A stretch of DNA of 64,000 nt, from contig JAXLYB010000002.1 in assembly GCA_046351675.1 (NCBI GenBank), forward strand, positions 192,001-256,000, in the 5' to 3' direction. Below, one piece after another: positions 15,672 through 55,558 of this stretch. Origin of the DNA: Myxococcaceae bacterium (GTDB lineage: Bacteria > Myxococcota > Myxococcia > Myxococcales > Myxococcaceae). The notes beneath the pieces were generated by a model. That model was not told the DNA's origin, did no database searches, and was given only the letters and a program-made list of their open reading frames with translations. The position numbers and the translations under genes are program-made. Position 1 is the first letter of the stretch, and every line of letters starts with the position of its first letter.

Positions 15672-15680
15672 CGTCACCCC

Positions 15681-15719
15681 CTCCCCCTCTCCCCGTGGGG
15701 AGAGGGTCGGGGTGAGGGG
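15681..15719. repeat. REP-like element copy in the sbcD-sbcC-like intergenic region
   Basis: ctccccctctccccgtggggagagggtcggggtgagggg. Confidence 0.8.
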
Positions 15720-15857
15720 AGACGCACCACCGAGCAACGGAACGACGCCCGCGCCGCGAAGGGAACTCGTCCGCGCGAGAGGAAACGCACTACCGACCGA
15801 CGGCACGACGCCCCCGCCACGAAGGAAACTCGTTCGCGCGACGGGAGACGCACCCGC
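15719..15857. repeat. 63-bp tandem direct repeat, about 2.2 copies
   Basis: gagacgcaccaccgagcaacggaacgacgcccgcgccgcgaagggaactcgtccgcgcgagag is repeated as gaaacgcactaccgaccgacggcacgacgcccccgccacgaaggaaactcgttcgcgcgacgg, then a partial third unit. Confidence 0.7.
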
Positions 15858-15858
15858 A

Positions 15859-16881
15859 TCACCCCTCCCCCGCCAGCATCGCGAGCGCCCGCCGCGCCGC
15901 CGGCTCATCCCGCTCCGCCAACCGCTTGCCCGCGAGCGCGAGCGCCGCCGGCCCATCACCCGTCTCGAGCCCGCGCACCTCGAGGCTGAGCTGCCTCGTG
16001 TCGAGCTCCATCACCAACGCCTCGTCCTCCTCGAGGTCGTCGAGCTCCTGCTGAAACGCAGCGTGCTCCGAGAGCGCAACGCGCGCATTCACCACCACCC
16101 GCAGCACCCGGCTGCCGAGGTCCTTCCGCTGCCCCAGCTGCCGCAGCGACGCGAGCGACCCCACCATCACCTCTTCCCACCGCAGCACGGCCGACTCGCG
16201 CGGCTCGACGAGCAGCTTGCCCTTCGCCCCGAAGCGCAAGAGCGCGACGCGGCCCTCGCCAGGCGCAAAGTCCATCGGCTCTGGAGTGCCGCTGTGCACC
16301 AGCGCGCGATCGTCCCACGCGAAGCCCTGCGCCGGCTCCCCGCCCAGACACCACGCGTCGAGGCCCGCGGCCGCCAGCGCCTCACGCGAGAGCAAGCGCG
16401 CACGGTGCACCACGCCCACCTGCGGGCCCTCACCTTCCGGCGTGGCCGTGACCTCGCGCACGCCGACGCGCGTGGTGGCGGGGAACAGGTGCAGCGTCAG
16501 CTCGTCGCGCACGCGCACGGTGCGCGGCTCGGTGACGACGTGCACGAACGCCGGCAACGCAGCTCGAAAGTCGGCGTCGGTCCACACCGAGCCCTCGAGC
16601 GCCGGGTCGCGGTCACCGGGCACGAGGAAGACCGGCCGGTCCTTCCACTTCAGCGCACCGAGCCGCTCGAGCACGGCCTGGCGGAGCGCGGGCGCGGGGT
16701 GCGGCGAGTCGAAGAGGTCGCCCACGCAGACCACCGCCGCGGCGTCGACCTCGGCGGCGAGCGCCAGCACGTTCTCGACCGCGGTGAGGCGGGCCGCGTC
16801 GAGACGCGGGGCGGCCTCGGGCGCGAAGCGAGCGAAGGGGCGGCCCAACCGCCAGTCAGACGTGTGCAGGAGCGTGAGCAC
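15859..16881 (-). CDS. SbcD/Mre11-like metallophosphoesterase (nuclease subunit)
   Basis: N-terminal LLHTSDWRLG and GDLFD phosphoesterase motifs. Lies immediately upstream of the SbcC-like gene on the same strand. Confidence 0.8.
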   Translation of the reverse strand: MLTLLHTSDWRLGRPFARFAPEAAPRLDAARLTAVENVLALAAEVDAAAVVCVGDLFDSPHPAPALRQAVLERLGALKWKDRPVFLVPGDRDPALEGSVWTDADFRAALPAFVHVVTEPRTVRVRDELTLHLFPATTRVGVREVTATPEGEGPQVGVVHRARLLSREALAAAGLDAWCLGGEPAQGFAWDDRALVHSGTPEPMDFAPGEGRVALLRFGAKGKLLVEPRESAVLRWEEVMVGSLASLRQLGQRKDLGSRVLRVVVNARVALSEHAAFQQELDDLEEDEALVMELDTRQLSLEVRGLETGDGPAALALAGKRLAERDEPAARRALAMLAGEG

Positions 16882-24564: not shown

Positions 24565-25224
24565 ATGACCCGCCGACCCCCGCCCCGCCCCTCCGCGCCC
24601 CAGCCGGGCTTGCGCGAGCGCAAGAAGCAGTCGCTGCGCGGGGAGCTGAGCCTCGCGGCGCTGCGCCTGGCCAAGCAGCACGGCCTCGAGCGCGTGCGCA
24701 CCGACGACATCGTCGACGCGGTGGGCGTGTCGCGGCGCACCTTCAGCAACTACTTCGCCAACAAGTACGAGGCGCTGGCCGACCGCGGCGTCGAGCGGGC
24801 CCAGCAGTCGGCCGAGGTGCTCCGCAGCCGCCCCCGCGACGAGCCGCTGTGGCCGGCGCTCACCGCGGCCCTCATCGCGCCGTACGAGCAGCTGGTGCTC
24901 AACGATTCCCCCGAGAGCCGCGAGGCGACGCTGCTGGTGTTCGACCACCCCTCGGTGCGCGCCGAGCTGTGGAAGGGTGAGCACGCGGCGCAGCAGGCGC
25001 TCGCTCAGGCCATCGCCGAGCGCACCGGCCTCGACCTGCACAAAGACCTCTACCCGGCCCTCGTCGCCGCGACGGCCGTCACCGCGGTCACCACGGTGCT
25101 CGAGCGCTGGCTGCGGCACAAGCGACCGCCGCCACTGCTCCCCCAGCTTCGCGACGCGCTCGCGCAGCTCGAGCACGGCCTGCCCGAGCCCACCCGCCGC
25201 CGCCACCCGAGGAGGTCCACGTGA
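24565..25224 (+). CDS. TetR/AcrR family transcriptional regulator
   Basis: HTH LERVRTDDIVDAVGVSRRTFSNYFANKYEAL. Only the last 220 codons of the 752-aa track ORF are real. Confidence 0.85.
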   Translation: MTRRPPPRPSAPQPGLRERKKQSLRGELSLAALRLAKQHGLERVRTDDIVDAVGVSRRTFSNYFANKYEALADRGVERAQQSAEVLRSRPRDEPLWPALTAALIAPYEQLVLNDSPESREATLLVFDHPSVRAELWKGEHAAQQALAQAIAERTGLDLHKDLYPALVAATAVTAVTTVLERWLRHKRPPPLLPQLRDALAQLEHGLPEPTRRRHPRRST

Positions 25225-26072
25225 AGCCTGGAACCGAGAGTCAAACCGCGGTGATGGTCGCCGCCGCCCGCGCCGCAGCACACGGCCGCACGAGCGTCGG
25301 CCGCTTCGCCGACCCCACCGTGCTGACGCTGTTGCCCCACGACGCCCGTCAGCGCGTCGAGCAGCTGCGCAGCGGGGCGACGCCGCACGGGCTCCGCGAG
25401 CGGCTGGGGCGCAAGATGCTCGAGGGCCGCGTGAAGATGATGGTGCCGCGCACGGTGGCCATCGACGACGCGATTCGCGCCGCCGCCGCGCCGCAGGTGG
25501 TGATTCTCGGTGCCGGGCTCGACGGTCGCGCGTGGCGCATGCCCGAGCTGGCCGACGCCACCGTCTTCGAGGTCGACCACCCCGACTCGCAGCGCCGCAA
25601 GCAGGAACGGGCCGCGACGCTCACCCCCACCGCGCGCGAGCTGCGCTTCGTGCCCGTCGACTTCACGCGCGACCGGCTCGACACCGCGCTCGCTGCCGCG
25701 GGCCACGACGCCACCCGGCCGACCACCTGGGTCTGGGAAGGCGTGGTGATGTACCTCGAGCGCGCCGACATCGAGGCCACCCTGCGGGTGCTCCGCGAGC
25801 GCTCGGCGCCTGGCAGCCACCTCGTCATCCTCTACACGTCGCCCTCGCTGGTGCGGAAGTTCGCCGGCCTGGTGCTCGGCCTGCTCGGGGAACCGTTTCG
25901 CTCGGCGTTCACCGCCCGGCAGATGCGTGGCTTGCTCCACGGCTTCGGCTTCGAGGTGGCGCACGACGACGACCTCGCGACGCTCGCGCAGCGCCTGGCG
26001 TCCGAGCCGTCGAGCCTCTTCAAAGACGTTCGGCTGGTCACCGCCACCGCCCGGAGGAATGAAGTGGTGTAG
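25221..26072 (+). CDS. class I SAM-dependent methyltransferase (TIGR00027/Ppm1-like O-methyltransferase)
   Basis: GTG start overlaps the TetR stop. The VVILGAGLDGRAW and FEVDHP motifs are present. Confidence 0.8.
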   Translation: MKPGTESQTAVMVAAARAAAHGRTSVGRFADPTVLTLLPHDARQRVEQLRSGATPHGLRERLGRKMLEGRVKMMVPRTVAIDDAIRAAAAPQVVILGAGLDGRAWRMPELADATVFEVDHPDSQRRKQERAATLTPTARELRFVPVDFTRDRLDTALAAAGHDATRPTTWVWEGVVMYLERADIEATLRVLRERSAPGSHLVILYTSPSLVRKFAGLVLGLLGEPFRSAFTARQMRGLLHGFGFEVAHDDDLATLAQRLASEPSSLFKDVRLVTATARRNEVV

Positions 26073-26084
26073 GACTGCCTGCGA

Positions 26085-26964
26085 GATGTTGCTCGACGCC
26101 GCCACCCTGTCCCGCATCGCCGGTCTCAAGCTGCGGGCCCGCGCGGTGGTCGAGGGCGTGCTCTCGGGCCTCCACAAGTCGCCGCACCAGGGCCAGAGCG
26201 TGGAGTTCGCCGAGCACAAGGAATACGCGCCGGGCGACGAGCTCCGTCACCTCGACTGGAAGGCGTTCGGCAAGTTCGACAAGTACTACGTCAAACGCTT
26301 CGAGCACGAGACCAACCTCCGCGCGGTGATGGTGGTCGACACCTCGGGCTCGATGGCGTTCGGCACCACGGGCTTGAGCAAGCTCGACGTCAGCCGCGTG
26401 ATGGCCGCGACGCTGAGCCACCTGCTGGTGCGGCAGCAAGACGCCGCCGGTGTCGCGCTCGTGGCGCAGGGCCGCTTCGCCGAGATTCCCCCGCGCGCGG
26501 CCGCCACCCACCTCGGCGCGGTGCTCGACGCGCTCGAGGGCGCGAAGGCGTCGGGGCCGACCGACCTGAGCGCCGCCGCCGACACGCTCGCCGAGAAGCT
26601 GCCGCGCCGCAGCCTGGTGTGCGTGTTTTCTGACTTCTTCGACGAGCGGGCCGACGCGCTGAAGCGGGTGCTGGCGCTGCGCTCGCGCAAGCACGACGTG
26701 GCGGTGTTCCACCTCGTCGACCCGGCCGAGCTCACCTTCCCGTGGGAAGACCCGACGCTCTTCCTCTCGATGGAAGACGAGCGCCGCGTCGAGGTGAACC
26801 CGCGGGAAATCAAGGAAAGCTACCTCGAGGAGTTCAACAAGTTCCTCGACCAGACCCGCGACGCGTGCCGCGCGGCCGACTGCGACTACCAGCTGGTGCG
26901 CACCGACGAGGCGATTGATCAGGCGCTGCTCAGGTTCCTCGCGCGCCGCGGGGGCCGCCTGTGA
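26085..26964 (+). CDS. DUF58 domain protein (MoxR/BatA-associated); alternative start 26059
   Basis: Canonical DUF58 N-terminus: LLDAATLSRIAGLKLRARAVVEGVLSGLHKSPHQGQSVEFAEHKEYAPGDELRHLDWK. Confidence 0.8.
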
Positions 26965-29051
26965 GCTTCGCGCAGCCGCTGTTCCTGCTCGGCACGCTCG
27001 CCGCGCTGATTCCCCTGCTGGTGCACCTCTTCGACCGGCGCCGCCCGCGCGAGGTGCCGTTCGCCGCGCTCGACTTCGTGTTGCGCAGCCAGCGCCGCAC
27101 CGCCTCGCGCCTGCGCCTGAAGCGGTTGCTCCTCTACATCCTGCGCACGCTGCTCTTGCTCGCGGTGCCCATCGCGCTCGCCCGGCCCTCGTTCGACGCC
27201 TCGGGCACGCTCGACACGCGGAGGGGACTGGCCGCGACCGCCATCGTGCTCGACACCTCGCTCGCGATGCGGTGGTCCGACGGCACGCGGCTGTTCGACG
27301 TCGCGAAGGACGAGGCGAAGGGCGCGCTGCGCGAGCTGAGCGCGGAAGAGCCCGCGACCGTCGTCATCTGCACCCGCACCCCGCAGACCATCGGCCCGCT
27401 GGGCTTCGAGCGCACGCGGTTGATCAGCGCGCTCGACGACGCGAAGCCGCAGTTCGAGAGCGTCGACCTGAACCAGTGCCTCGAGCAGGCCGTGCGCTCA
27501 CTCGACGAGTCGCCGCTCCCCAACCGCCGCCTGGTGCTGGTGAGCGCGCTGACGCAGGGCTCGCTCAAGCTCGAGGCCGCGCCGCCCATCGGCACCAGCA
27601 GCAAGGGCGAGCACTTGAAGCCCGAGGTGGTGGTGCGCGACGTGGCGAAGGGGAAGGACCTGCCCAACCGCGCCATCATCGACGTGCGCGCCGAGGCCGC
27701 CCCGCAGCTCGGGCCCCGCGCGTGGCAGTTCACCTTCACGGTGCGCAACTTCTCCAACGAGGCCGCGCACGACGTCGAGCTGCAGCTCGAGGTGAACGGC
27801 GAGGTGGTGCAGAAGGGCTTCGTCGACGTCGCCGCCGACGGCACGAGCCAGAAGACGCTCGCGTGGCGCTTCGAGAAGGGCGGCGTGGCGACCGTCACCG
27901 GCAAGCTCGAGCCCGACGCGCTGCCCGACGACGACGCGCGCAGCGTGGTGCTCTCGGTGCCGCGGCCCCTCACGGCGCTGGTGGTGAACGGCGCGCCCTC
28001 GGCCCAGAAGTACCGCGACGAGGCCTTCTTCACCGAGGCAGCGCTGAGCGCGAGCGGCTCGCCCGTGCGCGCGGTGGTGCGCGACGCCGACGCCGCGTGG
28101 CGCGAGAAGCTGAGCGACTACGACGTGGTGCTGCTGCTCAACGCCGAGCCGCCGCCGCCCGACACGGTGCGCGCGCTCGCCGACTTCGTGAGCCAGGGCG
28201 GAGGCCTCTTCATCAGCGTCGGTGACCGCGTCGACCCCGACGCGTGGAACCTCGCGATGGCGACCGTGCTGCCGCGCAAGCTGCGCGTGATGAAGACCGC
28301 GGTGGAGCCGAACGCCGTCGACGCCGCCACCCGCGCCGCGCGCCTCTCGCAGGTGTCGTTGAACCACCCGGTGATGGCGCCGTTCCAGGGCCGCGCGCGC
28401 GAAGGTCTGTTGTCGACGCGCTTCTACCGGTACGCGCTCTTCGAGGGCGACGCGTCGGGCGTGGAGACCGAGGTGCTCGGCACGATGGACGACGGCGCGC
28501 CGGTCTTCCTCGCCGCGCGCCAGGGCAAGGGCCGCGTCTTCGTCTACGCCTCGACCGTCGACCGCGACTGGTCCGACCTGCCGATTCGCACCTCGTTCCT
28601 GCCGCTGATGCAGCGCGTGGCGGCGTGGCTCACCGGCACCCTCGACGAGCGCGAAGAGGTGCACGCGCGCGTCGGGGCGGGCGTGGTGCTCGCGCCGGAG
28701 AAGGGGCAGTCGCCGGCGTATGCGCGCGCTCCCTCGGGGCTGGAGGTCGCGCTGACCGCGGTGCCGCAGACGTCGCAGTTCAGCGGTGGGCCGCTGCCCG
28801 AGCCCGGCGCGTACACCGTGGTCGACGCGCGCGGCGTGGCGCTGCCCAACCTCGGGTTCGCCGCGGCCATCGACCCGGGCGCGAGCAACCTCGCGCGGCA
28901 CCCGGTCGACTCGTTGAGCGCCTGGCTGGGCGAAGACTCGGTGCGCGTCGCGGGCGGCGCGGGGGCCGAGCGCACCACCCCGCTGTGGACGTGGCTCATC
29001 ACGCTCGCGGTCATCGCCTTCTTCCTCGAAGGCGTGCTGTTGCGGCGCTGA
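26961..29051 (+). CDS. BatA domain-containing membrane protein (N-terminal double-TM BatA domain, large periplasmic region)
   Basis: N-terminus MSFAQPLFLLGTLAALIPLLVHLFDRRRPREVPFAALDFV. ATGA overlap with DUF58. Length 696 aa. Confidence 0.85.
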   Translation: MSFAQPLFLLGTLAALIPLLVHLFDRRRPREVPFAALDFVLRSQRRTASRLRLKRLLLYILRTLLLLAVPIALARPSFDASGTLDTRRGLAATAIVLDTSLAMRWSDGTRLFDVAKDEAKGALRELSAEEPATVVICTRTPQTIGPLGFERTRLISALDDAKPQFESVDLNQCLEQAVRSLDESPLPNRRLVLVSALTQGSLKLEAAPPIGTSSKGEHLKPEVVVRDVAKGKDLPNRAIIDVRAEAAPQLGPRAWQFTFTVRNFSNEAAHDVELQLEVNGEVVQKGFVDVAADGTSQKTLAWRFEKGGVATVTGKLEPDALPDDDARSVVLSVPRPLTALVVNGAPSAQKYRDEAFFTEAALSASGSPVRAVVRDADAAWREKLSDYDVVLLLNAEPPPPDTVRALADFVSQGGGLFISVGDRVDPDAWNLAMATVLPRKLRVMKTAVEPNAVDAATRAARLSQVSLNHPVMAPFQGRAREGLLSTRFYRYALFEGDASGVETEVLGTMDDGAPVFLAARQGKGRVFVYASTVDRDWSDLPIRTSFLPLMQRVAAWLTGTLDEREEVHARVGAGVVLAPEKGQSPAYARAPSGLEVALTAVPQTSQFSGGPLPEPGAYTVVDARGVALPNLGFAAAIDPGASNLARHPVDSLSAWLGEDSVRVAGGAGAERTTPLWTWLITLAVIAFFLEGVLLRR

Positions 29052-29103
29052 GTTGAGGGAGAATCACGGTCGTGCCGAAGAGTCCTTTCAGACGAGCGCA
29101 CCG

Positions 29104-30189
29104 ATGAGTCTCGAGCGCCCCAGGGTGCTGGTGGTCGACGACGACGAGATCATTCGCCGTCTGGTGAAGGTCACGCTCGCGCAGAAGTACGAGGTCTTCG
29201 AGGCGCCCGACGCGCCCACCGCCATCGAGCTGGTCGGCCAGCACGACATCGAGGTGGTGGTCATCGACGTGATGATGCCCGGCATGACCGGCATGGAAGC
29301 GGTGCCGAAGCTGCGGGAACGCGCGAAGAACCCCATCTACGTGCTGTTGCTCACCGCGCTCCACGACCAGCAGAGCCGCAACCAGGGGCTCGAGGCCGGG
29401 GCCGATGACTACCTGGCCAAGCCGATGGACCGCAAAGAGCTCGTCTTGCGCGTGCAGAACTTCGTGCGCCTCGGCCGGCAGGAACGGCTCATTCGTCAGC
29501 AGCTCGAGTCACTGAGCCAGCTGCAGGCGCTCAAGGACGACCTCACGGCGCTGCTGGTGCACGACCTGCGCAACCCGCTCACCGCGGTGTCGAGCGCGTT
29601 CCAGTTGATGGAGAGCTCGATTCCCGAGAGCGAGCGCGAGCTCTTCAACCTCGGGAAGAACGCGCTCAAGCGGGTGATGGAAGGCGTCAGCGACCTGCTC
29701 AAGGTGCGCATGCTCGAGAAGGGCGAGCTGCAGCTCGAGCGCTCGACGTTCGAGCCGAAGGAGCTCGCCGAGGAAGTGGTGCAGACCCTCAAGGCCGCGG
29801 CGCTCGACGGGAAGATCGACGTGGCGGTGGTGTCCCCGCCGGGCGTCACGTTGAACGCCGACGCGAAGCTGCTCAAGCGCGCGCTCGAGAACCTGTTGAT
29901 CAACGCGTTCCGCCACACGCGCGGGAAGGTCGACGTCATCATCGAGCCCACCGCCGACGCGGTGCTGGTGTCGGTCGCCGACCGGGGACCCGGGGTGCCT
30001 GACTTCTTGAAGGGCGAGCTGTTCGACATGTTCGGCTCGCTCAAGCTCAAGGAGAGCGGCGGTCGGCGCGGGCATGGGCTGGGGCTGTACCTGGTGCGGC
30101 TCGTGGCGCGAGCACACGGCGGCGATGTGGTGGTGAAAGACCGTGAAAGCGGCGGCGCCGTCTTCCAGCTCAGCTTCCCGAAGTCGTAG
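29104..30189 (+). CDS. hybrid response regulator-histidine kinase (REC + HisKA + HATPase_c)
   Basis: REC domain residues VLVVDDDE and VIDVMMPGMTG, H-box LVHDLRNPL, and G-boxes DRGPGV and GHGLGLYL. The ATG at 29104 was preferred over a TTG at 29053. Confidence 0.85.
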   Translation: MSLERPRVLVVDDDEIIRRLVKVTLAQKYEVFEAPDAPTAIELVGQHDIEVVVIDVMMPGMTGMEAVPKLRERAKNPIYVLLLTALHDQQSRNQGLEAGADDYLAKPMDRKELVLRVQNFVRLGRQERLIRQQLESLSQLQALKDDLTALLVHDLRNPLTAVSSAFQLMESSIPESERELFNLGKNALKRVMEGVSDLLKVRMLEKGELQLERSTFEPKELAEEVVQTLKAAALDGKIDVAVVSPPGVTLNADAKLLKRALENLLINAFRHTRGKVDVIIEPTADAVLVSVADRGPGVPDFLKGELFDMFGSLKLKESGGRRGHGLGLYLVRLVARAHGGDVVVKDRESGGAVFQLSFPKS

Positions 30190-30208
30190 CGCCCTCTCCT
30201 CTTCAGAG

Positions 30209-31658
30209 CTGACGATCCAACACAACTTGTGAATCGCGCGCGGGCATGATCTCGCTCGCAAATGCACGCACTTCCTCCGATTCACGACGAGTTCCGAGAC
30301 TGCGAGTTTCCCGACCTTCGTCTTCTCGACCGAGTCGTGAGGATTGCGAGACAGCTCGAGGTGGACCCGAAGGCGAGCCTGCCCGAGTCGTTTCGAAACC
30401 CGTCGCAGCTCGAAGGCACGTACCGGTTCTTCGGTAACGAGCGCATTGACCTGGGCACCGTCGTCGCCGGCCACGTGAGCAACACGGTCCGACGCGTCGA
30501 TGTCGCGAAGCGCGCGCTGGCCATTCACGACACGACATCGTTCGTCTTCGACGGAGAGCGAGACGGACTCGGAATCGTCGACCGCTCGCAGCAAGGCTTC
30601 TATGCCCACGCGTGTCTCGCTGTTTCCGCGGATGGTGTGCGGCAACCTCTTGGATTGCTCGCGCTCGACACGTGGATGCGCACGAAGAAGAAGGGCAAGC
30701 GCACGACGGAAGCGCGACGCAACGAGAAGGAGCTCGAGTCCGACCGTTGGTTGGAGCAGTCGCTTGCCGTCGAAGAGCTCGTGTCGAACTCGACGGTGCT
30801 CATCCACGTCGAGGACCGCGAGGGCGATATCTACGAGAGCCTCGCGACGCGGGCGCAGCGAGGGATGCACTTCATCGTTCGCGCGTCGTCAAACCGAGTT
30901 GTGAAACTCGAAGGCGGCGGCACACAGAACGTCCTCGAATCCGCTCGCACGCTTCCGTTGCGCTCGAAGCGAGAGGTCGACCTCTCGGAGCGTCACAATC
31001 CGTTCGCGCACCTCCCAAAGACTTCGCATGGCAATCGCCAGGCGCGCACGACGCAGGTTGAGATTCGCTCCGGCGAGCTGACGCTGCGACGGCCGCAGAG
31101 AGCTCTCCGGTCGTCTGACTTGCCCAAAGAGCTTCGCCTCAACGTGGTGCACGTCGGCGAGGTCGATGCGCCTCCAGGCGAGAAGGCGGTCGAGTGGCTC
31201 CTCTTCACGACCGAGCCCGTCGATTCAGCGACCGATGCTGAGCAAGTCGTCGACTTCTACCGAACGCGATGGCTCATCGAGGAATACTTCAAAGCGCTCA
31301 AGACGGGCTGCAAGTACGAAGACAAAAGGCTCGAGAGCGGCCCCGCGCTCCTCAACGCGCTCGGTGTTTTTGCCATCGTCGCGTGGCGGCTTCTCGTCCT
31401 GCGCTTCATCGACCGAACGGCGGACGACAGCCCAGCCGAGTCCGTCGCGACAGACGCCGAAATCGCAGTGCTCGTCGCGAAGAAGCGCCTGAAGCCGAAC
31501 GCTACAGCGCGCGAATTCACCACCGCACTCGCTCGCTACGGCGGTCACCTGCCGCAGAACGGACCACCCGGCTTACTCATCCTCTGGCGAGCGCTCCGTG
31601 CACTGCAGCAAGTCGCGGAAGGCTGGTCCTTGGCTCAGGAAATGTGATCAATCCTCAG
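30209..31658 (+). mobile_element. IS4-family (IS50/Tn5-like) insertion sequence, about 1450 bp, with 10-bp direct target duplication CTCTTCAGAG
   Basis: Left end CTGACGATCCAACACAACTTGT resembles the Tn5 outside end CTGACTCTTATACACAAGT. The reverse complement of the right end (CTGAGGATTGATCACATT) pairs with the left end at 12 of 18 positions. Flanks 30199-30208 and 31659-31668 are identical. GC content is lower than that of the flanking DNA. Confidence 0.8.
30262..31647 (+). CDS. IS4 family transposase (Tn5 Tnp-like DDE)
   Basis: 461 aa. C-terminal YRTRWLIEEYFKALKTGCKYEDKRL is the IS4/Tn5 YREK signature region. The N-terminus resembles the Tn5 Tnp DNA-binding region. Confidence 0.9.
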   Translation: MHALPPIHDEFRDCEFPDLRLLDRVVRIARQLEVDPKASLPESFRNPSQLEGTYRFFGNERIDLGTVVAGHVSNTVRRVDVAKRALAIHDTTSFVFDGERDGLGIVDRSQQGFYAHACLAVSADGVRQPLGLLALDTWMRTKKKGKRTTEARRNEKELESDRWLEQSLAVEELVSNSTVLIHVEDREGDIYESLATRAQRGMHFIVRASSNRVVKLEGGGTQNVLESARTLPLRSKREVDLSERHNPFAHLPKTSHGNRQARTTQVEIRSGELTLRRPQRALRSSDLPKELRLNVVHVGEVDAPPGEKAVEWLLFTTEPVDSATDAEQVVDFYRTRWLIEEYFKALKTGCKYEDKRLESGPALLNALGVFAIVAWRLLVLRFIDRTADDSPAESVATDAEIAVLVAKKRLKPNATAREFTTALARYGGHLPQNGPPGLLILWRALRALQQVAEGWSLAQEM

Positions 31659-31713
31659 CTCTTCAGAGGAGAGGGTCGGGGTGAGGAGAGAAGCGTCGGG
31701 CGTTGGAGTCGCC

Positions 31714-34700
31714 TCAGCGCTTGAACAGCCCCTTCAGCGTCGCCCAGAACCCACCCGCGCGCTTCTCGAGCTCTTCACCGCGCTCCTTGTTCACCGCGGC
31801 CGCCTTCTCAGCCGTGATGCCGAGCTTCTGCGCCGCCTCTTCGCTCGTGTAGCGCGTGGCCAACGTCGCCCGCACCACCGAGCGCGTCTTGAACTCCCGC
31901 GCCTCGACGCGCAGCACGCACTCGGCGTCGAGCGACAGCGTCACCGCCACCTGCACCGCGCCCGCGGGCCCCTTCGGCAACCCGGTGATCAACACCGAGC
32001 CGAGGAACTCGTTGCCCGCCACGTTCGAGTCCTCGCCCTGGTACACGAGCACCTCGAGCTCGGTCTCCCCGTCCTTCTGGGTCGAGAGGCCGAACGACTT
32101 CGTGACGGGCAGCGCGGTGTTGCGCTCGATGAGCCGGTGGAACACGCCGCCCGGCCGACCGACGCCCACCGTCATCGGCACCACGTCGATGAGCACCAGC
32201 GGCGAGACCTTGTCGAGGGTGCCGCTGTACAGCGCGGCGCCGAGCGCGACGGCCTCGTCGGCGTTGACCGACGCGTGCGCGGGCTTCTTGAAGACCGCCT
32301 TCAACTTCTCGCGCACCAGCGGCATGCGGCTCTGCCCGCCGACGAGGATGATGTCGTCGACCTGCGCGGGCTTGAGGCGCGCGTCGAGCAGCACGTCCTG
32401 CACGGCCTGGATGGTGCGGTCGACCAGCTCGCCACACGCGGCCTCGAGCTCGGCGCGCGTGACGGTGGTGCGCAGGTCGAGCGGCTGGCCGCCGTCCATC
32501 TCCAGCATCGGCAGGTGCACGTCGAAGCTGGTGCGCTCGGACAGGGCCATCTTCGCCTTCTCGGCGACCTCGTTGATGCGCGAGAGCGCGATGCGGTCGC
32601 CGCCGAACGGGCGCTTGTGCCACGAGGTGTAGCGATCGAGCAGGAGCTTCACGACCTGCGCGTCGAAGTCGACGCCGCCGAGGAACACGTCGCCCCCCGT
32701 CGCGAGCACCTCGAAGACGTTCTTGTCGAGCTTGAGGAGCGTGGCGTCGAAGGTGCCGCCGCCGAGGTCGTAGACGAGCACGGTCTTCGTCAGGTCGCGG
32801 CCCATGCCGAACGCGAGCGCGGCGGCGGTGGGCTCGTTCAGCACGCGCTCGACCTTGAGGCCGGCCATCGCGCCCGCGCGCCGCACCGCCTCGCGCTGCG
32901 CCTCGGAGTAGTACGCCGGGCACGTCACCACCGCGCGCGTGACGGGCGTGCCCAGTGATTGCTCGGCGAAGTCGCGGCATTCCTTGAGCACCAGCGCCTG
33001 CACCTCGTCGAGCGAGAGCACCTTGCCGCCCAGCTTCACGGCAGCGCGGCGATCGGGGCCGGCGACGATGGAGAAGTGCGCGCGTTCCTTCACCTGCTGC
33101 ACGGTGGCGTTGTCGAAGTCGCGGCCCACGAGGCGCTTGGCGCCGGTGATGGACTGCGTCGGGTTGAGCACCATCTGCTGCTTCGCGCGGTGGCCGATGA
33201 GGAGGCGGCCCTGCGTGGTGAGCGCGACCACCGAGGGAATCGTGTTGTAGCCATCGCGCGAGACGACGATGTGCGGGCGGCCCTTGTTGAGCACCGCGAC
33301 CGCGGAGTTCGTCGTGCCGAGGTCGATGCCGATGAGCGCGCCGGTGGCGTCGCCGCCGACCTTCACGTCCTTGAGGTACACCGGGCCGGCCGGCACGGGC
33401 GCCGTCTCGAGCGCGGGCGGCGGACCTTCGAGCTTCGGAGCGAGGACTGGCGCGGAGGGCGCGAGCGCCGGCGGAGGCGCGGCGGGGACCGCTTCGAGCT
33501 GCTCGAGGTCGACGTCGAAGCCCGACGGCCCCGAGGAGAAGGGAATGTCTTCGGCCGGCGCGGTGGTGTCGGACAGCAGTGAGTCGAGGTCGAGCTCGAT
33601 GTCGCGTGACGGGTCGGTGTCGGCGGTCGCGTCCGAGAAGATGTCGGACGGGTCGACGTCGAGGGGCGCCTCTTCCTCGGCAGCCACCGCGGGAGGCGGA
33701 GGCGGCGCTGCGGCGGTGAAGAAGGAGCTGAAGTCGGCGGGCTCGTCGGCGTCGGGCGCGGGCGGAGCCTCGGTCGCGGGCACGACCCCGTACGCGGCGG
33801 TGCGCGGACTCTCTGGCACGGGTGCGGCCGGCGCGGGCACGACTCCGTACGCGGCGGTGCGCGAGCCGTCAGCCGGTGCACTCGTGGGAGCGGGGGCAGG
33901 TGCAACTCCAGCCGTCGCTGCGCGCGGGCCAGCGGCCTGACCAGCCTGCGTCGCGGGCGCAACGCCAGGCGGAGCCGCGGGGCTCACAGGCGGAACTTCA
34001 GGCGTCGCGGCGCGCGGGACAGCGGGTGCCGAAGCAACTCCAGGCGCGAGAGCCGTGGCGGGCGGCGCGGCCGCAACGCCAGGCGTTGGCGCTGGAGCCG
34101 CTGGTGCTGCAGGCGCAACTCCGGCACTCGCGGCGCGCGAGGCAGCCGATGTTGCGGGCGCAACTCCAGGCGTCGCAGCGCGTGGGGCCGATGTCGCGGC
34201 AGGAACTCCAGGCGTCGCAGCACCCGAGGTCGCAGGCGCAACTCCCGGCGTCGCGGTGCGCGGGGCCGATGTCGCGGCAGGAACTCCAAGCGTTGCAGCA
34301 CCCGGGGTCGCAGGCGCAACTCCCGGCGTCGCAGCGCGCGGGGCCGATGTCGCGGGAGGAACTCCAGGCGTCGCAGCACCTGGGGTCGCAGGCGCAACTC
34401 CCGGCGTCGCAGCGCGCGGGGCCGATGTCGCGGAAGGAACTCCAGACGTCGGAGCACCTTGTGTCGCAGGCGGAACTCCGGTCGCCGCAGCGCGCGGGGC
34501 CGATGTCGCGGCAGGAACTCCAGGCGTCGCAGCACCTGGGGTCGCAGGCGCAACTCCCGGCGTCGCAGCGCGCGGGGCCGATGTCGCGGCAGGAACTCCA
34601 GACGTCGGAGCACCTTGTGTCGCAGGCGGAACTCCGGTCGCAGAGGCTGAGGGAGGAACTGCAGGCGTTGGAGCACCCGCGGTCGGCGCAACTCCCGACG

Positions 34701-35508
34701 TCGCAGCAGCACGCGGGGCCGCTGTCGCGGGAGGAACTCTAGGCGTCGGAGCGCCCGCCGTCGCAGCGCGCGGGGCCGAGGTCGCGGCAGGAGCTCCAGG
34801 CGACGGAGCACCGCCGGTCCCAGGCGCAGGCTGAGCGGTCGCGGGCACGACGCCGTAGGCCGCGGTGCGCGGACCGGCGGCTGGAACTGCGGGAGGCGCA
34901 GCGGTCGCAGGCACGACGCCATAGGTCGCGGTGCGCGGAGGAATGACCCCCGACGTCTCCGCGGTGAAGAGGGACCCGACGTCTTCCTGATCAGGCCGCT
35001 CCGGCTCAGCGCGCGGAGGAATCACCCCCGACGTCTCCGCCGTGAAGAGCGAGCCCACGTCTTCCTGCGCCGGCCGCGGCGGCGGCACGATGCCCGACGT
35101 CGCCGAGGTGAAGAGCGAGTCGAGCTCCACGGCCGGAGGCGCGCTGGGCGGAGGAGGAGGCGCTGGAGGCCGCGCCGCCGGCTTCCCGAGCATGCGATCG
35201 ACCAGCTCGCGTGACGCGGGGTCGAGCGTGACGAACTGCAGCCCCATGCCCGCGGGCCCGCCGGGATCATTCTCCCCGCGCACCCACCGCACGATGGCCG
35301 TGCCCTGCAGCACGCGCTGCCCCGAGGCGATCTCCACCTTGAAGTTCAGCTCGGTGCCGACGGGCTTCGGCTCCCGCGTGCGAATGAACATGCCGCCGTC
35401 GGACAAGTTGGTCGCGTACTTCGACGCGAACTCGTCGAGGCCCTTGTGGGCCAGCTTCACCAACAGCCCGACCTGTTTGCGAACGTTCGAGCGGTGGTCG
35501 TTCGACAC
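31714..35508 (-). CDS. PilZ domain-Hsp70 (DnaK-like) fusion protein with a long Pro/Ala/Thr-rich repetitive linker
   Basis: N-terminal PilZ motifs RSNVR (RxxxR) and DGGMFI (DxSxGG). About 550 aa of low-complexity repeats follow. A complete Hsp70 NBD (IGIDLGTTNS, DLGGGTFD) and substrate-binding domain complete the protein. Confidence 0.85.
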   Translation of the reverse strand: MSNDHRSNVRKQVGLLVKLAHKGLDEFASKYATNLSDGGMFIRTREPKPVGTELNFKVEIASGQRVLQGTAIVRWVRGENDPGGPAGMGLQFVTLDPASRELVDRMLGKPAARPPAPPPPPSAPPAVELDSLFTSATSGIVPPPRPAQEDVGSLFTAETSGVIPPRAEPERPDQEDVGSLFTAETSGVIPPRTATYGVVPATAAPPAVPAAGPRTAAYGVVPATAQPAPGTGGAPSPGAPAATSAPRAATAGAPTPRVPPATAAPRAAATSGVAPTAGAPTPAVPPSASATGVPPATQGAPTSGVPAATSAPRAATPGVAPATPGAATPGVPAATSAPRAAATGVPPATQGAPTSGVPSATSAPRAATPGVAPATPGAATPGVPPATSAPRAATPGVAPATPGAATLGVPAATSAPRTATPGVAPATSGAATPGVPAATSAPRAATPGVAPATSAASRAASAGVAPAAPAAPAPTPGVAAAPPATALAPGVASAPAVPRAATPEVPPVSPAAPPGVAPATQAGQAAGPRAATAGVAPAPAPTSAPADGSRTAAYGVVPAPAAPVPESPRTAAYGVVPATEAPPAPDADEPADFSSFFTAAAPPPPPAVAAEEEAPLDVDPSDIFSDATADTDPSRDIELDLDSLLSDTTAPAEDIPFSSGPSGFDVDLEQLEAVPAAPPPALAPSAPVLAPKLEGPPPALETAPVPAGPVYLKDVKVGGDATGALIGIDLGTTNSAVAVLNKGRPHIVVSRDGYNTIPSVVALTTQGRLLIGHRAKQQMVLNPTQSITGAKRLVGRDFDNATVQQVKERAHFSIVAGPDRRAAVKLGGKVLSLDEVQALVLKECRDFAEQSLGTPVTRAVVTCPAYYSEAQREAVRRAGAMAGLKVERVLNEPTAAALAFGMGRDLTKTVLVYDLGGGTFDATLLKLDKNVFEVLATGGDVFLGGVDFDAQVVKLLLDRYTSWHKRPFGGDRIALSRINEVAEKAKMALSERTSFDVHLPMLEMDGGQPLDLRTTVTRAELEAACGELVDRTIQAVQDVLLDARLKPAQVDDIILVGGQSRMPLVREKLKAVFKKPAHASVNADEAVALGAALYSGTLDKVSPLVLIDVVPMTVGVGRPGGVFHRLIERNTALPVTKSFGLSTQKDGETELEVLVYQGEDSNVAGNEFLGSVLITGLPKGPAGAVQVAVTLSLDAECVLRVEAREFKTRSVVRATLATRYTSEEAAQKLGITAEKAAAVNKERGEELEKRAGGFWATLKGLFKR
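34060..34800. repeat. 78-bp (26-codon) tandem repeat array, about 9 copies, inside the PilZ-Hsp70 linker
   Basis: Unit ggcaggaactccaggcgtcgcagcacccgaggtcgcaggcgcaactcccggcgtcgcggtgcgcggggccgatgtcgc encodes ATSAPRAATPGVAPATPGAATPGVPA on the minus strand. Confidence 0.8.
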
Positions 35509-35526
35509 TGCGGCTCCCGGGGCTGA

Positions 35527-36540
35527 TCAGCTCATCGCGCCGATGATGGCGTTGGTGAACTCCACGGTGTTGTTCTTGCCGCCGAGATCACCGGTGCGCA
35601 CCTTGCCCTCGGCGTACACCTTCATCACCGCCTTCTCGATGCGCTGCGCGTGCGCGTCGAGGTTGAGCCACTCGAGCATCATCACGGTCGACATCAGCAG
35701 CGCCGTCGGGTTCGCCAACCCCTTGCCCGCGATGTCGGGCGCCGTGCCGTGCACCGCTTCGAAGACCGCGCACGAGGCGCCGATGTTCGCGCCCGGCACC
35801 ACGCCCAGCCCGCCGACCAGGCCCGAGCAGAGGTCCGAGATGATGTCGCCGTAGAGGTTTTCCATCACCATCACGTCGAACTTCTCGGGGCTCTTCACCA
35901 GCTGCATGCACAGCGCGTCGACGATGACCTCGCTGGTCTCGATCTGCGGGAAGTCGCGCGCCACCTTGCGGAAGCAGTCGAGGAACAGGCCGTCGGACAG
36001 CTTCATGATGTTCGCCTTGTGAACGGCGCTCACCTTCTTGCGGCCCTTCTTCACGGCGTACTCGAAGGCGAAGCGGCAGATGCGGGTGCTCGCCTTCTCG
36101 GTGATGATCTTCAGCGACTCCACGACGCCCGGCACCACGATGTGCTCGATGCCCGCGTAGAGGTCTTCGGTGTTCTCACGCACCACCACGAGGTCGACGT
36201 TCTCGTAGCGCGTCTTCACGCCCGGCACCGACTTGATGGGCCGCAGCGACGCGTAGAGGTCGAGCCGCTTGCGCAGCGCCACGTTCGCCGACTGCTGGCC
36301 GCCGCCGATGCCCGTCGCCGTCGGGCCCTTCAGCCCACAGCCGTTGCGCATGATGGCCTCGACCGTCTCGTTCGGCAGGTTGGTGCCGTAGCGGTTGGCG
36401 ATCTCCGAGCCCGCGTCCTTGTACTCGAACTCCAGCGGCGCCTTCGACGCTTCGAGAATCTTGCGGCACGCGTCCATCACCTCGGGGCCGATGCCGTCGC
36501 CGTTCAGCAGCGTCACCTTGCGAATCGTCTGAGCGCTCAT
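35527..36540 (-). CDS. NAD-dependent isocitrate dehydrogenase (IDH3-like, beta-decarboxylating dehydrogenase family)
   Basis: 337 aa with LLNGDGIGPEV, ENTEDLYAGIEH and NLYGDIISDLCSGLVGGLG motifs. Lies 18 bp upstream of the PilZ-Hsp70 gene on the same strand. Confidence 0.8.
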   Translation of the reverse strand: MSAQTIRKVTLLNGDGIGPEVMDACRKILEASKAPLEFEYKDAGSEIANRYGTNLPNETVEAIMRNGCGLKGPTATGIGGGQQSANVALRKRLDLYASLRPIKSVPGVKTRYENVDLVVVRENTEDLYAGIEHIVVPGVVESLKIITEKASTRICRFAFEYAVKKGRKKVSAVHKANIMKLSDGLFLDCFRKVARDFPQIETSEVIVDALCMQLVKSPEKFDVMVMENLYGDIISDLCSGLVGGLGVVPGANIGASCAVFEAVHGTAPDIAGKGLANPTALLMSTVMMLEWLNLDAHAQRIEKAVMKVYAEGKVRTGDLGGKNNTVEFTNAIIGAMS

Positions 36541-40875: not shown

Positions 40876-41634
40876 ATGAGCGCTGAAGGCCCCTCACCCC
40901 AGCCCTCTCCCCTCTCGAGGGGAGAGGGAGAGCTTGCCCCGACCCGCCGCGAAGGCTGCCCCGCGCGCGTCACGCTCGAGAGCGCCTCAGCCGGAGACTG
41001 GGCCGATGGAATCCGCGCCCACGTCGACGCCTGCCCGCACTGCCGCGAACAACTCCAGGCGCTCGAAGCCCACCGCGCCGCCTTCCTCGCCGCGCGCCCG
41101 ACCGAGCGATTCCTCGGTCAACTCGACGCCCGCGCGCAGAAGAAGCCCGCCCGGCGCGCCTGGCTCCCCGCACTCGGCCTCGTCGCCACCGCCGCCGTCG
41201 CGCTCTTCGTCCTCCTGCCGCGCAACCCGGATCCTACCGGTGTGAACTTCAAGGGCCTCTCGAGCATCGCGCTCAAGCGTGGCGACCGCGTCGAGACTGC
41301 CGCCTCGTCCACGAAGCTCGCCCCCGGCGACGCCCTGCGCTTCTCGGTGCACGCCCCACGCGACGGCTTCGCAGTGGTGCTCGAGCGCGACGGCGCCGGC
41401 AAGGTGACCATCGTCGCGCCCTTCGCCGCGACCGCGCCGCTGGCGGTGAGCGTGGGCACGACCGACCTCCCCGACTCCGCGGTGCTCGACGACGTGCGCG
41501 GCGCCGACACCTTCTTCACCGTCTTCTCCGAGCAGCCCTTCGAGCTGAAGCCACTCGTCGACGCGCTCGAGCGCGGAGAATCACCGCGCTGCCCCGGCTG
41601 CACCGTGGAGGTGTCGAGCTTCGACAAGCCGTGA
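40876..41634 (+). CDS. zf-HC2 (ChrR/RsrA-like) anti-sigma factor with one TM helix
   Basis: HVDACPHCREQL zinc-finger motif, and TM WLPALGLVATAAVALFVLL. The first 20 codons are REP-derived (SPQPSPLSRGEGE). Confidence 0.7.
   Translation: MSAEGPSPQPSPLSRGEGELAPTRREGCPARVTLESASAGDWADGIRAHVDACPHCREQLQALEAHRAAFLAARPTERFLGQLDARAQKKPARRAWLPALGLVATAAVALFVLLPRNPDPTGVNFKGLSSIALKRGDRVETAASSTKLAPGDALRFSVHAPRDGFAVVLERDGAGKVTIVAPFAATAPLAVSVGTTDLPDSAVLDDVRGADTFFTVFSEQPFELKPLVDALERGESPRCPGCTVEVSSFDKP
40890..40928. repeat. REP-like element copy (inverted orientation), overlapping the 5' end of the anti-sigma ORF
   Basis: cccctcaccccagccctctcccctctcgaggggagaggg. Confidence 0.8.
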
Positions 41635-43202
41635 TGCGCGCCTTCATCCTCCGTCTCGCCGTGGCGCTCATCCTCTCGTGGGGAGCGACGAGCTTTGCGG
41701 GCGAGGCGCCGGTGCGGCTGCTGCTCGCGTTCGGCAGCGACCTGGGCGACCCCGACGAGGCGCCGCTCTCGCACGCCGAGGAAGACGCCCAGCGCCTGCG
41801 CGACCTCTTCACCGAGCTGGGCAGCGTGGAGTCCTCGCGCGCCCTCGTGCTCCGCCGCGCCGCCGCCGACAAGGTGCGCGAGCGCTTCGCCGAGCTGCAG
41901 GGCCGCGTCGCCGAGCTGAAGGCCGCGGGCAAGCGCGTCGAGCTGGTGGTCTTCGCCTCGGCGCACGGCAAGGGCGGCGCATTGCACCTCGCCGGCACAC
42001 GCCTCGAGTTGGACGAATTGCGCGAGCTCGCCCGCCGCTGCGGCGCCGACCTCACCATCACCATCGTCGACGCGTGCGAGGCCGGCCTCTCGCGCGCGAA
42101 GGGCTCGCAGAAGGGCCCCGCGTACCAGCTCACGGTGACGCCGCCGTCGGTGAAGGGCGAGGTCTTCATCGCGTCGTCGGGCGCGAGCGAGGCCGCGCAG
42201 GAATGGGAAGCGCTCTCGGGCTCGCTCTTCACGCACCACCTGATCAGCGGCCTGCGCGGAGACGCCGACGGCGACGGCGACGGCACCGTCACCCTGATGG
42301 AAAGCTACGCGTACGCCGAGCACCGCACGGTGGCCAACAGCCTCGACCGCGGCCAGCACCCGGAGTTCGCCGTGAAGCTCGAGGGCGCCAGCGACGTGGT
42401 GCTCACCCGCCTCGACCAGGGCCGCGCGAAGGTGGTGCTCGACGAGAACCTCGAGGGCCGCTTCGTGCTCGTCTCGCAGCCGCGGCCCGACGTGGTGACC
42501 GAGGTGAGCAAGGTGCGCGGCAAGCCGCTGACGCTCGCCGTGCCCGCGGGCCGCTACGTGCTGCGGCAGGCGCGCGGCTTCTCGGTGGCGATGCAAGACG
42601 TCGAGCTCCCGTACGGAGGCACCTCGCGCGTCGACGGCAAGCGCTTCGTCACGCGCGACTACGCCGAGGTCGCGCTGAAGGGCGGCGCGCTGGAGTTCCA
42701 CCCGCAAGCCATCCAGCTCGGCGCCGCGCTCTCACTGCCGCCCGAAGACGGCACGCCCGCACGCTGGGAAATGCAGGGCGCGTGGCGGTACACGGCCGGC
42801 CGCGCGTGGCTCCTCGTCGGCGGCGGGTGGGGTACCGCGCGCTTTCGCGGCGTCGGGCTGACGACTCGCGACAACCGTTTTGCCGTGCGAGTGCAGGGCG
42901 GCGGCCGCTTCTGGCTCGGGCCGTTGAGCTTGATGCCCGGGCTGGAGCTCGAAGGCTCCGTGCTGAGGCAGGATTCCGAGCGCGACCAGGAGGCGGAGAT
43001 TCTCCGCAGCTATCCCCCGCTGCCGATTCGCGTGACGGCGGGTCTCGGGGTCGGTCCCGTGGTGCGCGGTGAGCTCCCGCTGCCCGGGCCGCTGTTCGCC
43101 ACGCTCTCCGCCGGGGCCTCGCTGCGTTGGCTGCCGCTGGTCGACGCGCCGGCCTTCTCCTTCGGGGCCCATGCGGACGTGGGGCTGGGGGTGCGCTTTT
43201 GA
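41631..43202 (+). CDS. secreted caspase-like (clan CD peptidase C14/C13-like) domain protein with a C-terminal outer-membrane beta-barrel-like domain
   Basis: Signal peptide MMRAFILRLAVALILSWGATSFA. His motif VVFASAHGKGG and Cys motif TIVDACEAG (compare caspase QACxG and legumain EACESG). The C-terminus has alternating beta strands and ends in Phe (GLGVRF). ATGA overlap with the anti-sigma. Confidence 0.65.
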   Translation: MMRAFILRLAVALILSWGATSFAGEAPVRLLLAFGSDLGDPDEAPLSHAEEDAQRLRDLFTELGSVESSRALVLRRAAADKVRERFAELQGRVAELKAAGKRVELVVFASAHGKGGALHLAGTRLELDELRELARRCGADLTITIVDACEAGLSRAKGSQKGPAYQLTVTPPSVKGEVFIASSGASEAAQEWEALSGSLFTHHLISGLRGDADGDGDGTVTLMESYAYAEHRTVANSLDRGQHPEFAVKLEGASDVVLTRLDQGRAKVVLDENLEGRFVLVSQPRPDVVTEVSKVRGKPLTLAVPAGRYVLRQARGFSVAMQDVELPYGGTSRVDGKRFVTRDYAEVALKGGALEFHPQAIQLGAALSLPPEDGTPARWEMQGAWRYTAGRAWLLVGGGWGTARFRGVGLTTRDNRFAVRVQGGGRFWLGPLSLMPGLELEGSVLRQDSERDQEAEILRSYPPLPIRVTAGLGVGPVVRGELPLPGPLFATLSAGASLRWLPLVDAPAFSFGAHADVGLGVRF

Positions 43203-55409: not shown

Positions 55410-55558
55410 TTCGGGCGCAGGCTCTACCCCGGGGGGCGGCGGCCGGTCCACCGGGGGACCGCTCGTGCTTCCACCCTCTTCGGGCTTGGCCGGGCGCGCG
55501 CCTCGTGCCATGTCCGCCCCACTTCGCCGTTCGCTCGCGTCACCGAGGGGAAATCCAC

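Follow-up and report, generated by a model that had tools for sequence, protein, structure and literature searches.

A CsdK2-like PilZ-Hsp70 fusion protein encoded in a Myxococcaceae genome, a new member of the myxobacterial PilZ-DnaK family

A 64,000-nucleotide stretch of DNA from a Myxococcaceae bacterium (assembly GCA_046351675.1, contig JAXLYB010000002.1, positions 192,001 to 256,000; hereafter the window) carries a gene for a 1264-residue protein in which an N-terminal PilZ domain is joined through a long low-complexity linker to an Hsp70 chaperone. The gene occupies positions 31714-35508 of the reverse strand (1264 codons followed by the stop codon at 31714-31716) and was delimited by its uninterrupted open reading frame (ORF), its matches in Pfam and NCBIfam and 100 full-length relatives. 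It is a new member of the CsdK1/CsdK2 family of PilZ-DnaK proteins and not a new discovery. We consider it likely that the gene encodes one polypeptide on the CsdK2 side of this myxobacterial family and that its product is a specialised Hsp70. An initial annotation of the window had proposed the PilZ-Hsp70 fusion, and a Pfam search bore this out, with PF07238 and PF00012 both above their cutoffs. The same annotation held that such a fusion was functionally uncharacterised. This is not the case: the genes for CsdK1 and CsdK2 were deleted in 2021 (PMC8316039), and a chaperone role of their products was shown in 2023 (PMC10313047). Because the family is already named and partly characterised, the fusion should not be reported as new.

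Of the 15 DnaK paralogues of Myxococcus xanthus, two, CsdK1 (MXAN_3778) and CsdK2 (MXAN_6605), begin with a PilZ domain (Seidel et al. 2023, PMC10313047). Pull-downs with CdbS, itself a PilZ protein, recovered both, and in CsdK2 it is the DnaK core rather than the PilZ domain that CdbS binds (PMC10313047). CsdK1 and CsdK2 act as redundant chaperones that stabilise CdbS under heat stress at 37 °C or upon depletion of CdbA, and raised CdbS results in chromosome disorganisation and cell death (PMC10313047). The same paper reports that the PilZ domain of CsdK1 lacks the RxxxR half of the motif for binding cyclic di-GMP (c-di-GMP). The 2021 study covered the full set of 24 M. xanthus PilZ genes, MXAN_3778 and MXAN_6605 among them, deleting every one, and pointed out that a DnaK or DnaJ domain accompanies PilZ in four proteins (PMC8316039). 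A search of the later literature returned no paper mentioning CsdK2 after that of Seidel et al., and nothing relevant on PilZ combined with Hsp70 beyond that work or on TIGR02266, the type to which the PilZ domain of the window protein belongs.

Representatives of CsdK1 and CsdK2 were identified indirectly, via the peptides that the primers listed in S1 Table of PMC10313047 encode. For CsdK2 these peptides are DQGR(R38A)TTDR, GLNREL and KKALGRK, the last being the C-terminus, and the Myxococcus relatives P0026 and P0027 contain each of them. The 1142-residue representative P0144 has the wild-type segment (…MDQGRRTTDRK…) and the KKALGRK end, and a 32-residue N-terminal extension puts its motif arginine at position 38. 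For CsdK1 the encoded peptides are (M)TESNQA and, at the C-terminus, KGLFGRA, and P0150 matches both (MTDSNQA…, …WLKGLFGRA). This protein begins MTDSNQAAVGLVVKL, with no arginine and no RxxxR. A protein from Archangium gephyra, P0036 (35% identity), which has no RxxxR, was also considered as a CsdK1 type. It was rejected because it lacks the peptide tags of CsdK1 and falls outside the two CsdK clades in the tree.

We searched for homologues with the Hsp70 part alone; a full-length query was swamped by low-complexity words from the linker (41 hits). In a neighbour-joining tree of 543 aligned Hsp70 columns (100 bootstraps), the smallest clade that holds both the window protein and CsdK2 leaves out CsdK1 in 100 of 100 replicates. 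Over these columns the window protein shows 62.1% identity with the CsdK2 representative and 50.4% with that of CsdK1. It also has RxxxR and so differs from CsdK1, whose PilZ domain is without it. Judged by its sequence, the window protein is CsdK2-like. It forms a sub-branch with three proteins from metagenome-assembled genomes (MAGs), P0001, P0015 and P0020, at 76-85% identity.

The 1264-residue fusion is a genuine single polypeptide and no assembly artefact. The frame runs without a stop from the PilZ domain to the end of the Hsp70, and therefore a PilZ domain that is translated must read through into the chaperone. Codon changes in the PilZ segment relative to the two nearest relatives are mostly silent (25-26 synonymous, 5-7 non-synonymous), which shows that the segment is translated and under purifying selection. 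Its G+C content at third codon positions (GC3) is a normal 0.94; both domains lie at 0.9-1.0 in a window with ~71% G+C overall. The start codon is GTG, with a Shine-Dalgarno-like GGGAG 5 nt upstream, and the N-terminus of the window protein aligns with the N-termini of its orthologues. In 100 full-length relatives PilZ domain, linker and Hsp70 also occur in one polypeptide; these relatives come from many separate assemblies, closed genomes of Myxococcus and Archangium among them. The initial annotation had cautioned that a frameshift or an assembly join might have produced the fusion and had called for a survey of its distribution. With the survey run, the layout proves common to these 100 relatives, and together with the missing stop and the purifying selection this leaves the worry unfounded.

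The PilZ domain spans residues 5-107 (35188-35496, reverse strand, like all features of the gene given below). It scores 42.2 bits against PF07238 (cutoff 22.5) and 93.4 bits against TIGR02266 (cutoff 68.7), which NCBIfam describes as a PilZ-type paralogous domain first defined in M. xanthus. The initial annotation had credited the domain with intact c-di-GMP motifs, and both halves can be placed from sequence and conservation: the RxxxR half is R6-S-N-V-R10 (35479-35493) and the (D/N)xSxxG half is N34-L-S-D-G-G39 (35392-35409). The two are separated by 23 residues and make up a full bipartite motif. Among 44 relatives R10, N34, S36, G38 and G39 show no variation, R6 is at least 90% conserved, and RxxxR is found at the expected position in 79 of the 86 relatives with a sufficiently long N-terminus.

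An AlphaFold2 model of the domain, made with 44 relatives, has the β-barrel and C-terminal helix of a PilZ fold, with a predicted local distance difference test score (pLDDT) of 78.9. The RxxxR stretch is modelled as a low-confidence flexible N-terminal arm, as in c-di-GMP-binding PilZ domains in the apo state. Searched by sequence, the domain had no significant match among PDB chains, while the top Foldseek matches of the model in the PDB are all PilZ proteins. Given the motif and its conservation, the PilZ domain of the window protein most likely binds c-di-GMP, and the initial proposal of a c-di-GMP-controlled chaperone is plausible, a possibility that the authors of the M. xanthus work likewise consider for CsdK2.

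The Hsp70 part matches PF00012 over residues 726-1250 with 504.1 bits (gathering cutoff 20.6) and aligns to residues 2-536 of Escherichia coli DnaK with ~39% identity. Its nucleotide-binding domain (NBD) comprises residues 723-1103 (32200-33342), the DnaK alignment starting from residue 2. In the alignment to 2kho, the DnaK residues D8, K70, E171, D194, T199 and D201 correspond to D729, K791, E892, D914, T919 and D921, and the catalytic and phosphate-binding residues of the ATPase are nearly invariant among 134 relatives. A hydrophobic interdomain linker follows, VLIDVVP (residues 1105-1111), which corresponds to LLLDVTP of DnaK. Together with the β-subdomain of the substrate-binding domain (SBDβ, to residue ~1217) and a truncated lid (residues 1222-1250), it occupies 31759-32199, as placed by alignment to DnaK residues 389-536 and by the model. 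The Hsp70 model is confident overall (pLDDT 89.6; predicted template modelling score, pTM, 0.87), with a pLDDT of ~90 in the NBD and high values in the SBDβ strands, and superimposes on ATP-state DnaK (4b9q) with a template modelling (TM) score of 0.86. The cutoffs of the DnaK equivalog models are not reached (NF001413, 526.8 versus 648; TIGR02350, 522.1 versus 822.55), which marks the protein as one of many Hsp70 paralogues, distinct from the housekeeping DnaK.

Where the initial annotation had described a complete ATPase and substrate-binding region, only the first half of the description holds. All the ATPase residues are kept, but the substrate-binding domain lacks the complete lid (helices A-E): the profile match ends at position 531 of 599, equivalent to residue ~536 of the 638 of DnaK, and the protein itself ends ~14 residues past the DnaK-536 position. 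What remains of the lid is modelled as two short helices (residues 1222-1228 and 1233-1250), followed by a terminal helix at 1254-1262. The Hsp70 part measures a nearly constant 538-541 residues throughout the family. Residues of the substrate arch and pocket are altered relative to DnaK (M404 to P1119, A429 to Q1144 and V436 to L1151). The initial annotation had also remarked on the lack of an EEVD tail. Such a tail is a feature of eukaryotic cytosolic Hsp70s and not of bacterial DnaK. Its absence is therefore uninformative, as it is not expected in a bacterial Hsp70.

The protein ends in a basic amphipathic tail that is conserved in relatives (residues 1251-1264, …RAGGFWATLKGLFKR, 31717-31758); the last 13 residues read GGFWATLKGLFKR. 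Tails of the G-[GR]-F-W-x-x-L-K type terminate 121 of the 134 relatives, and 122 of the 134 pass a test of hydrophobic moment and charge. The tail is modelled as a helix with low confidence (pLDDT 53-68). Many related Hsp70s, with or without a PilZ domain, carry tails such as KRGFFARLFGKGK, ERKGFFGKLFGARR and GFWSWFKGLFGRSG, which resemble the membrane-targeting sequence (MTS) of E. coli MinD, KGFLKRLFGG (PMC5471200). Relatives with MinD-MTS-like tails include P0150, P0153, P0159, P0164 and P0167. Among the representatives of 50%-identity clusters, 36 of 75 lid-truncated proteins pass the test for an MTS-like tail versus 13 of 57 long ones, a moderate enrichment only. We regard the MinD-like tail as a lead to a possible membrane anchor and not as a finding; the tags placed so far on the C-termini of CsdK1 and CsdK2 could conceal such an anchor.

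Between the PilZ domain and the Hsp70 lies a low-complexity linker rich in alanine (27%), proline (22%) and threonine (10%), delimited by composition and codon-position G+C to residues 108-722 (33343-35187). At ~615-618 residues it is the longest among the 100 relatives, whose linkers range from 93 to 618 residues with a median of 232. Tandem Repeats Finder detects within it a 78-bp (26-codon) unit present in 6.1 tandem copies that are 91% identical (34157-34635). GC3 is as low as 0.46-0.68 across the repeat core (residues ~200-550). The array of 26-mers is flanked by shorter repeats (linker flanks, 33775-35118), namely three copies of SLFTxxTSG[IV][IV]PP (residues 131-191) and four copies of TA[AT]YGVVPA (residues 193-223 and 551-578). 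The repeat periods (21, 36, 57, 78 and 234) are all multiples of 3, and thus errors in copy number cannot break the frame.

Linker sequences cannot be aligned between genera, and the linker is fast-evolving and probably disordered. One element recurs in it: an acidic motif, [DE][IVL]x[LIV]Dx[LIVM][LIVMA], is present in 72 of the 100 linkers, as ELDLDSLL in the window protein (residues 638-645, 33574-33597) and as DIPLDELI in the Myxococcus orthologues of CsdK2. Its conservation suggests a short linear interaction motif. The published CsdK work makes no mention of the lid truncation, the tail, or the disordered linker and its motifs.

Seen together with the work on M. xanthus, the window protein would be a specialised, non-housekeeping Hsp70 that uses ATP and works with J-domain and GrpE partners which, by analogy with M. 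xanthus, would be encoded elsewhere. Its DnaK core would act on a few particular clients, holding or folding them; CdbS is the one known from M. xanthus. In the M. xanthus circuit of heat stress and regulated cell death, more CsdK is present under heat stress, CdbS increases in turn, and chromosome disorganisation and cell death follow. From the anatomy of the protein, the PilZ domain, held on a flexible tether of ~600 residues, is more likely to serve as a c-di-GMP-dependent targeting module, as a module that recruits partners or as an autoinhibitory one than as a rigid switch on the ATPase. The hundreds of disordered residues between the PilZ domain and the ATPase make rigid allosteric coupling unlikely.

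Several observations weigh against this reading, beginning with those that bear on orthology to CsdK2. The sub-branch of the window protein is sister to the branch formed by M. xanthus-type CsdK2 and its orthologues from A. gephyra and Melittangium. Identity across the two sub-branches is 62%, versus 76-96% within the CsdK2 sub-branch, where the A. gephyra and Melittangium orthologues are 76-78% identical to M. xanthus-type CsdK2. Synteny gives little support: in M. landrumensis and A. gephyra, csdK2 has a BatA/DUF58 operon with MoxR in its vicinity, in another arrangement, and the corresponding genes of the window, although only 3-6 kb away, are on the opposite side of the gene. In the locus of the closest relative the operon is absent.

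Instead of a strict CsdK2 orthologue, the window protein could therefore be a closely related paralogue that serves another client. In its fullest form, this reading would add to CsdK1 and CsdK2 a third, distinct PilZ-DnaK paralogue that is sister to CsdK2, acts on a client different from CdbS and perhaps works in association with the membrane. We hold this to be possible, if somewhat doubtful. Besides the separate sub-branch and the poor synteny with csdK2 loci, it would fit the substrate arch and pocket residues that differ from those of DnaK, and the large radiation of these proteins (54 of the 141 nearest representatives of 50%-identity clusters have the PilZ type of the window protein). 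On the other side, no genome was seen with both sub-branch types, in a survey that was not exhaustive, and the CsdK2 orthologues agree with the window protein in the PilZ N-terminus, in how the motifs are spaced, in the acidic motif of the linker and in the tail. The MAG lineages may also simply be more divergent.

The remaining points concern the PilZ domain. The solved folds closest to its model are those of Xanthomonas PilZ adaptors that do not bind c-di-GMP (7lkm, 4fou, 3dsg and 3cnr), and the c-di-GMP binders MotI, PA4608, MrkH and Alg44 rank lower in the Foldseek list. In M. xanthus, the interaction between CdbS and CsdK2 is unaffected by the motif mutation R38A, and binding of c-di-GMP by CsdK2 is itself a hypothesis (PMC10313047). 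Single csdK deletions gave no motility or developmental phenotype (PMC8316039). With R38A being without effect and the single deletions without phenotype, any role of the PilZ domain is at present putative.

The fold matches and the R38A result would agree with a PilZ domain that works independently of c-di-GMP, as an adaptor like XAC1133 or the PilZ domain of CsdK1, so that the fusion would only tether the chaperone to a partner. The redundancy of CsdK1 with CsdK2 despite its missing RxxxR points the same way. We nevertheless find this explanation unlikely. The strong conservation of both motif halves, with RxxxR in place in the great majority of relatives and N34, S36, G38 and G39 unchanged, is hard to explain without ligand binding. 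Type II PilZ proteins, to which the Xanthomonas adaptors belong, are without c-di-GMP motifs. The RxxxR arm of the model is flexible, like that of apo c-di-GMP-binding domains. We thus retain the reading of the window protein as a CsdK2-side PilZ-DnaK whose PilZ domain most likely binds c-di-GMP.

A more elaborate version of this idea would make the whole family c-di-GMP-gated, membrane-associated, lid-less Hsp70s. Here the tail, as an amphipathic helix, would hold the chaperone at the inner membrane, and the PilZ domain, on a long tether with conserved acidic or aromatic motifs such as ELDLDSLL, would bind c-di-GMP and in this way recruit or release clients or partners, or occupy the substrate site of the chaperone as a pseudo-substrate. 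We offer this as a speculation with rather long odds against it. Given what is already published, the value of the present analysis is mostly corrective. The remaining interest lies in what, if anything, c-di-GMP binding to the PilZ domain does to the chaperone and in a few small structural leads, namely the truncated lid, the MinD-MTS-like tail and the conserved acidic motif in a hypervariable linker, from which this question can be approached.

The PilZ-Hsp70 fusion is widespread in Myxococcota. Among the 54 cluster representatives that have the PilZ type of the window protein, 11 carry it at the C-terminus (P0213, P0219, P0230, P0232, P0242, P0256, P0269, P0270, P0280, P0284 and P0291). These are Hsp70s of ~890-1030 residues in which the PilZ domain follows a basic, KKPARLK-like stretch, an order that the CsdK paper does not mention. 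Another variation is seen in P0131, a 751-residue protein of Corallococcus exiguus. It has an Hsp70 of the CsdK2 clade (62% identity) and the KKALGRK end, with an N-terminal PF13717 zinc-ribbon and a PF14237 GYF_2 domain in place of PilZ. This points to N-terminal domain swapping within the CsdK2 clade or to a different gene call.

Upstream of the fusion gene and on the same strand lies a gene for a 337-residue NAD-dependent isocitrate dehydrogenase (IDH; 35527-36540), whose stop codon is 18 bp from the PilZ-Hsp70 start, as the initial annotation had noted. The assignment stands: the protein scores 453 bits against TIGR00175 (cutoff 432.4), and an identical protein is present in NCBI as MFO0595061.1, isocitrate dehydrogenase (NAD(+)). 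With a gap of 18 bp on the same strand, co-transcription with IDH is likely in this genome. A scan for promoters and terminators around the gene was uninformative, with 0 promoter-like sites and fewer terminator-like sites than expected by chance.

The initial annotation had implied that the two genes form a unit, in which case the chaperone might be dedicated to IDH or regulate flux through the tricarboxylic acid cycle. The short gap, with no promoter- or terminator-like site in it, would allow this. We found no significance in the adjacency, however. A tblastn search of nine related loci, which included as much as 10 kb of flanking DNA, detected no IDH homologue, and the genes directly upstream of the orthologues differ: a 279-residue protein without a Pfam match, VWA_CoxE, a 469-residue protein without a Pfam match and, on the opposite strand, a 389-residue protein without a Pfam match. 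From these two findings the adjacency is probably incidental and peculiar to this genome, and a functional coupling to IDH is very improbable.

An insertion sequence (IS) element that adjoins the other end of the gene is likewise consistent with local rearrangement. This IS4/Tn5-like element (30192-31675, forward strand) contains a transposase gene at 30262-31647 with Tnp_DNA_bind and DDE_Tnp_1 matches in Pfam. It is bounded by 33-nt terminal inverted repeats with 82% complementarity and has a local G+C fraction of 0.64, versus ~0.71. It ends 39 bp from the PilZ-Hsp70 stop codon and is convergent with the gene.

Beyond the IS element are a hybrid response-regulator/histidine-kinase gene (29053-30189) and a DUF58-BatA pair (25927-29051; BatA with a von Willebrand factor A domain, aerotolerance-type), and a gene for a leucine carboxyl methyltransferase (LCM, 25221-26072) stands where MoxR would be. 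On the IDH side, ~6 kb from the chaperone, a 523-residue protein (41631-43202, forward strand) has a weak caspase-domain match (Peptidase_C14, E 1e-5); that it lies close to a chaperone with M. xanthus relatives implicated in regulated cell death is probably coincidental. Further away are genes for an 1150-residue protein with ten DUF4215 repeats and a PPC domain (52059-55511, reverse strand) and for a 1079-residue protein with weak SMC_N and AAA_23 matches (12720-15959, reverse strand), as well as several large ORFs, such as one of 1353 codons (59402-63463). Among 29 ORFs of the window that were submitted to Pfam, 14 of which have no match, the search revealed no CdbS, CdbA, DnaJ or other J-protein, GrpE, GGDEF or EAL protein and no further PilZ protein.

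The public annotation of the gene is shorter than the gene itself. For the same MAG, NCBI lists a 701-residue "Hsp70 family protein", MFO0595059.1, which equals residues 564-1264 with an internal GTG taken as the start, so that the PilZ domain is missed. No protein matching the PilZ part from the source MAG was found in the protein collection that we searched. Nor could a protein be matched to the accession that falls between those of the Hsp70 and the IDH, presumably MFO0595060.1. A different MAG has separate calls for the PilZ part (246 residues, P0292) and the Hsp70 part (556 residues, P0050), apparently on one 18,685-bp contig; either the gene is truly split there or its repeat-rich linker contains a frameshift.

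Together with the atypical codon usage of the repeat core, these calls could be taken to mean that separate PilZ and Hsp70 genes were joined by a frameshift or by mis-assembly of the repeats and that the 701-residue Hsp70 is the true product; we find this scarcely credible in view of the uninterrupted frame, the purifying selection and GC3 of the PilZ segment, the repeat periods that preserve the frame, the same fusion in 100 relatives, some from closed genomes, with linkers of 93-618 residues, and the fact that CsdK2 has been handled experimentally as an 1146-residue protein of the same layout. The short annotation itself is likely due to the repeat core, the codon usage of which would not look coding to a gene caller. 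As gene callers can cut such genes at the repeat-rich linker, censuses of PilZ-Hsp70 proteins that are based on automatic annotation will undercount them.

The window protein can be compared with five known systems, three of which resemble it in one part only. With the canonical DnaK of E. coli (2kho, 4b9q) it has the ATPase residues, the hydrophobic interdomain linker and SBDβ in common, and it differs in a lid cut at about DnaK residue 550, in an arch where M404 and A429 are replaced by proline and glutamine, and in the N-terminal PilZ domain and linker. The Xanthomonas PilZ proteins (XAC1133/XC1028, the FimX-PilB adaptor) offer the nearest fold to its PilZ domain, with a Foldseek E value of 5e-5 and a TM score of ~0.6, at 17-24% identity. 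Whereas these adaptors have no c-di-GMP motifs and no ligand binding of their own, the window PilZ domain keeps both motif halves. The likeness to MinD is confined to the C-terminal MTS and to the sequence pattern, a short basic amphipathic end of the form G-F-(hydrophobic)-x-x-L-(K/R)-x-L-F that is seen in GGFWATLKGLFKR and, among relatives, in KRGFFARLFGKGK and ERKGFFGKLFGARR; the host proteins are unrelated.

The other two systems resemble it in overall layout. CsdK1 has the same PilZ-linker-Hsp70 layout, the truncated lid and a C-terminal tail of the KGLFGRA type. It differs in the absence of RxxxR, in an identity of 50% and in its position outside the clade of the window protein and CsdK2. 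CsdK2 (MXAN_6605, 1146 residues) is closest. It shares the N-terminal PilZ domain with RxxxR and NxSxxG, a long low-complexity linker, the Hsp70 NBD, interdomain linker and substrate-binding domain, a constant Hsp70 part of ~540 residues that ends in a basic amphipathic tail, and the branch of the tree. Relative to CsdK2-type proteins of Myxococcus and A. gephyra, identity is 62% in the Hsp70 part and 56-65% in the PilZ domain. The linker of the window protein is unrelated to that of CsdK2 and longer (618 residues), with alanine-, proline- and threonine-rich 26-mers instead of the acidic FEFDLDFSEA-type repeats of Myxococcus. The window protein stands on a sister sub-branch and in a different genomic neighbourhood, and CsdK2 remains the known protein with which it has most in common.

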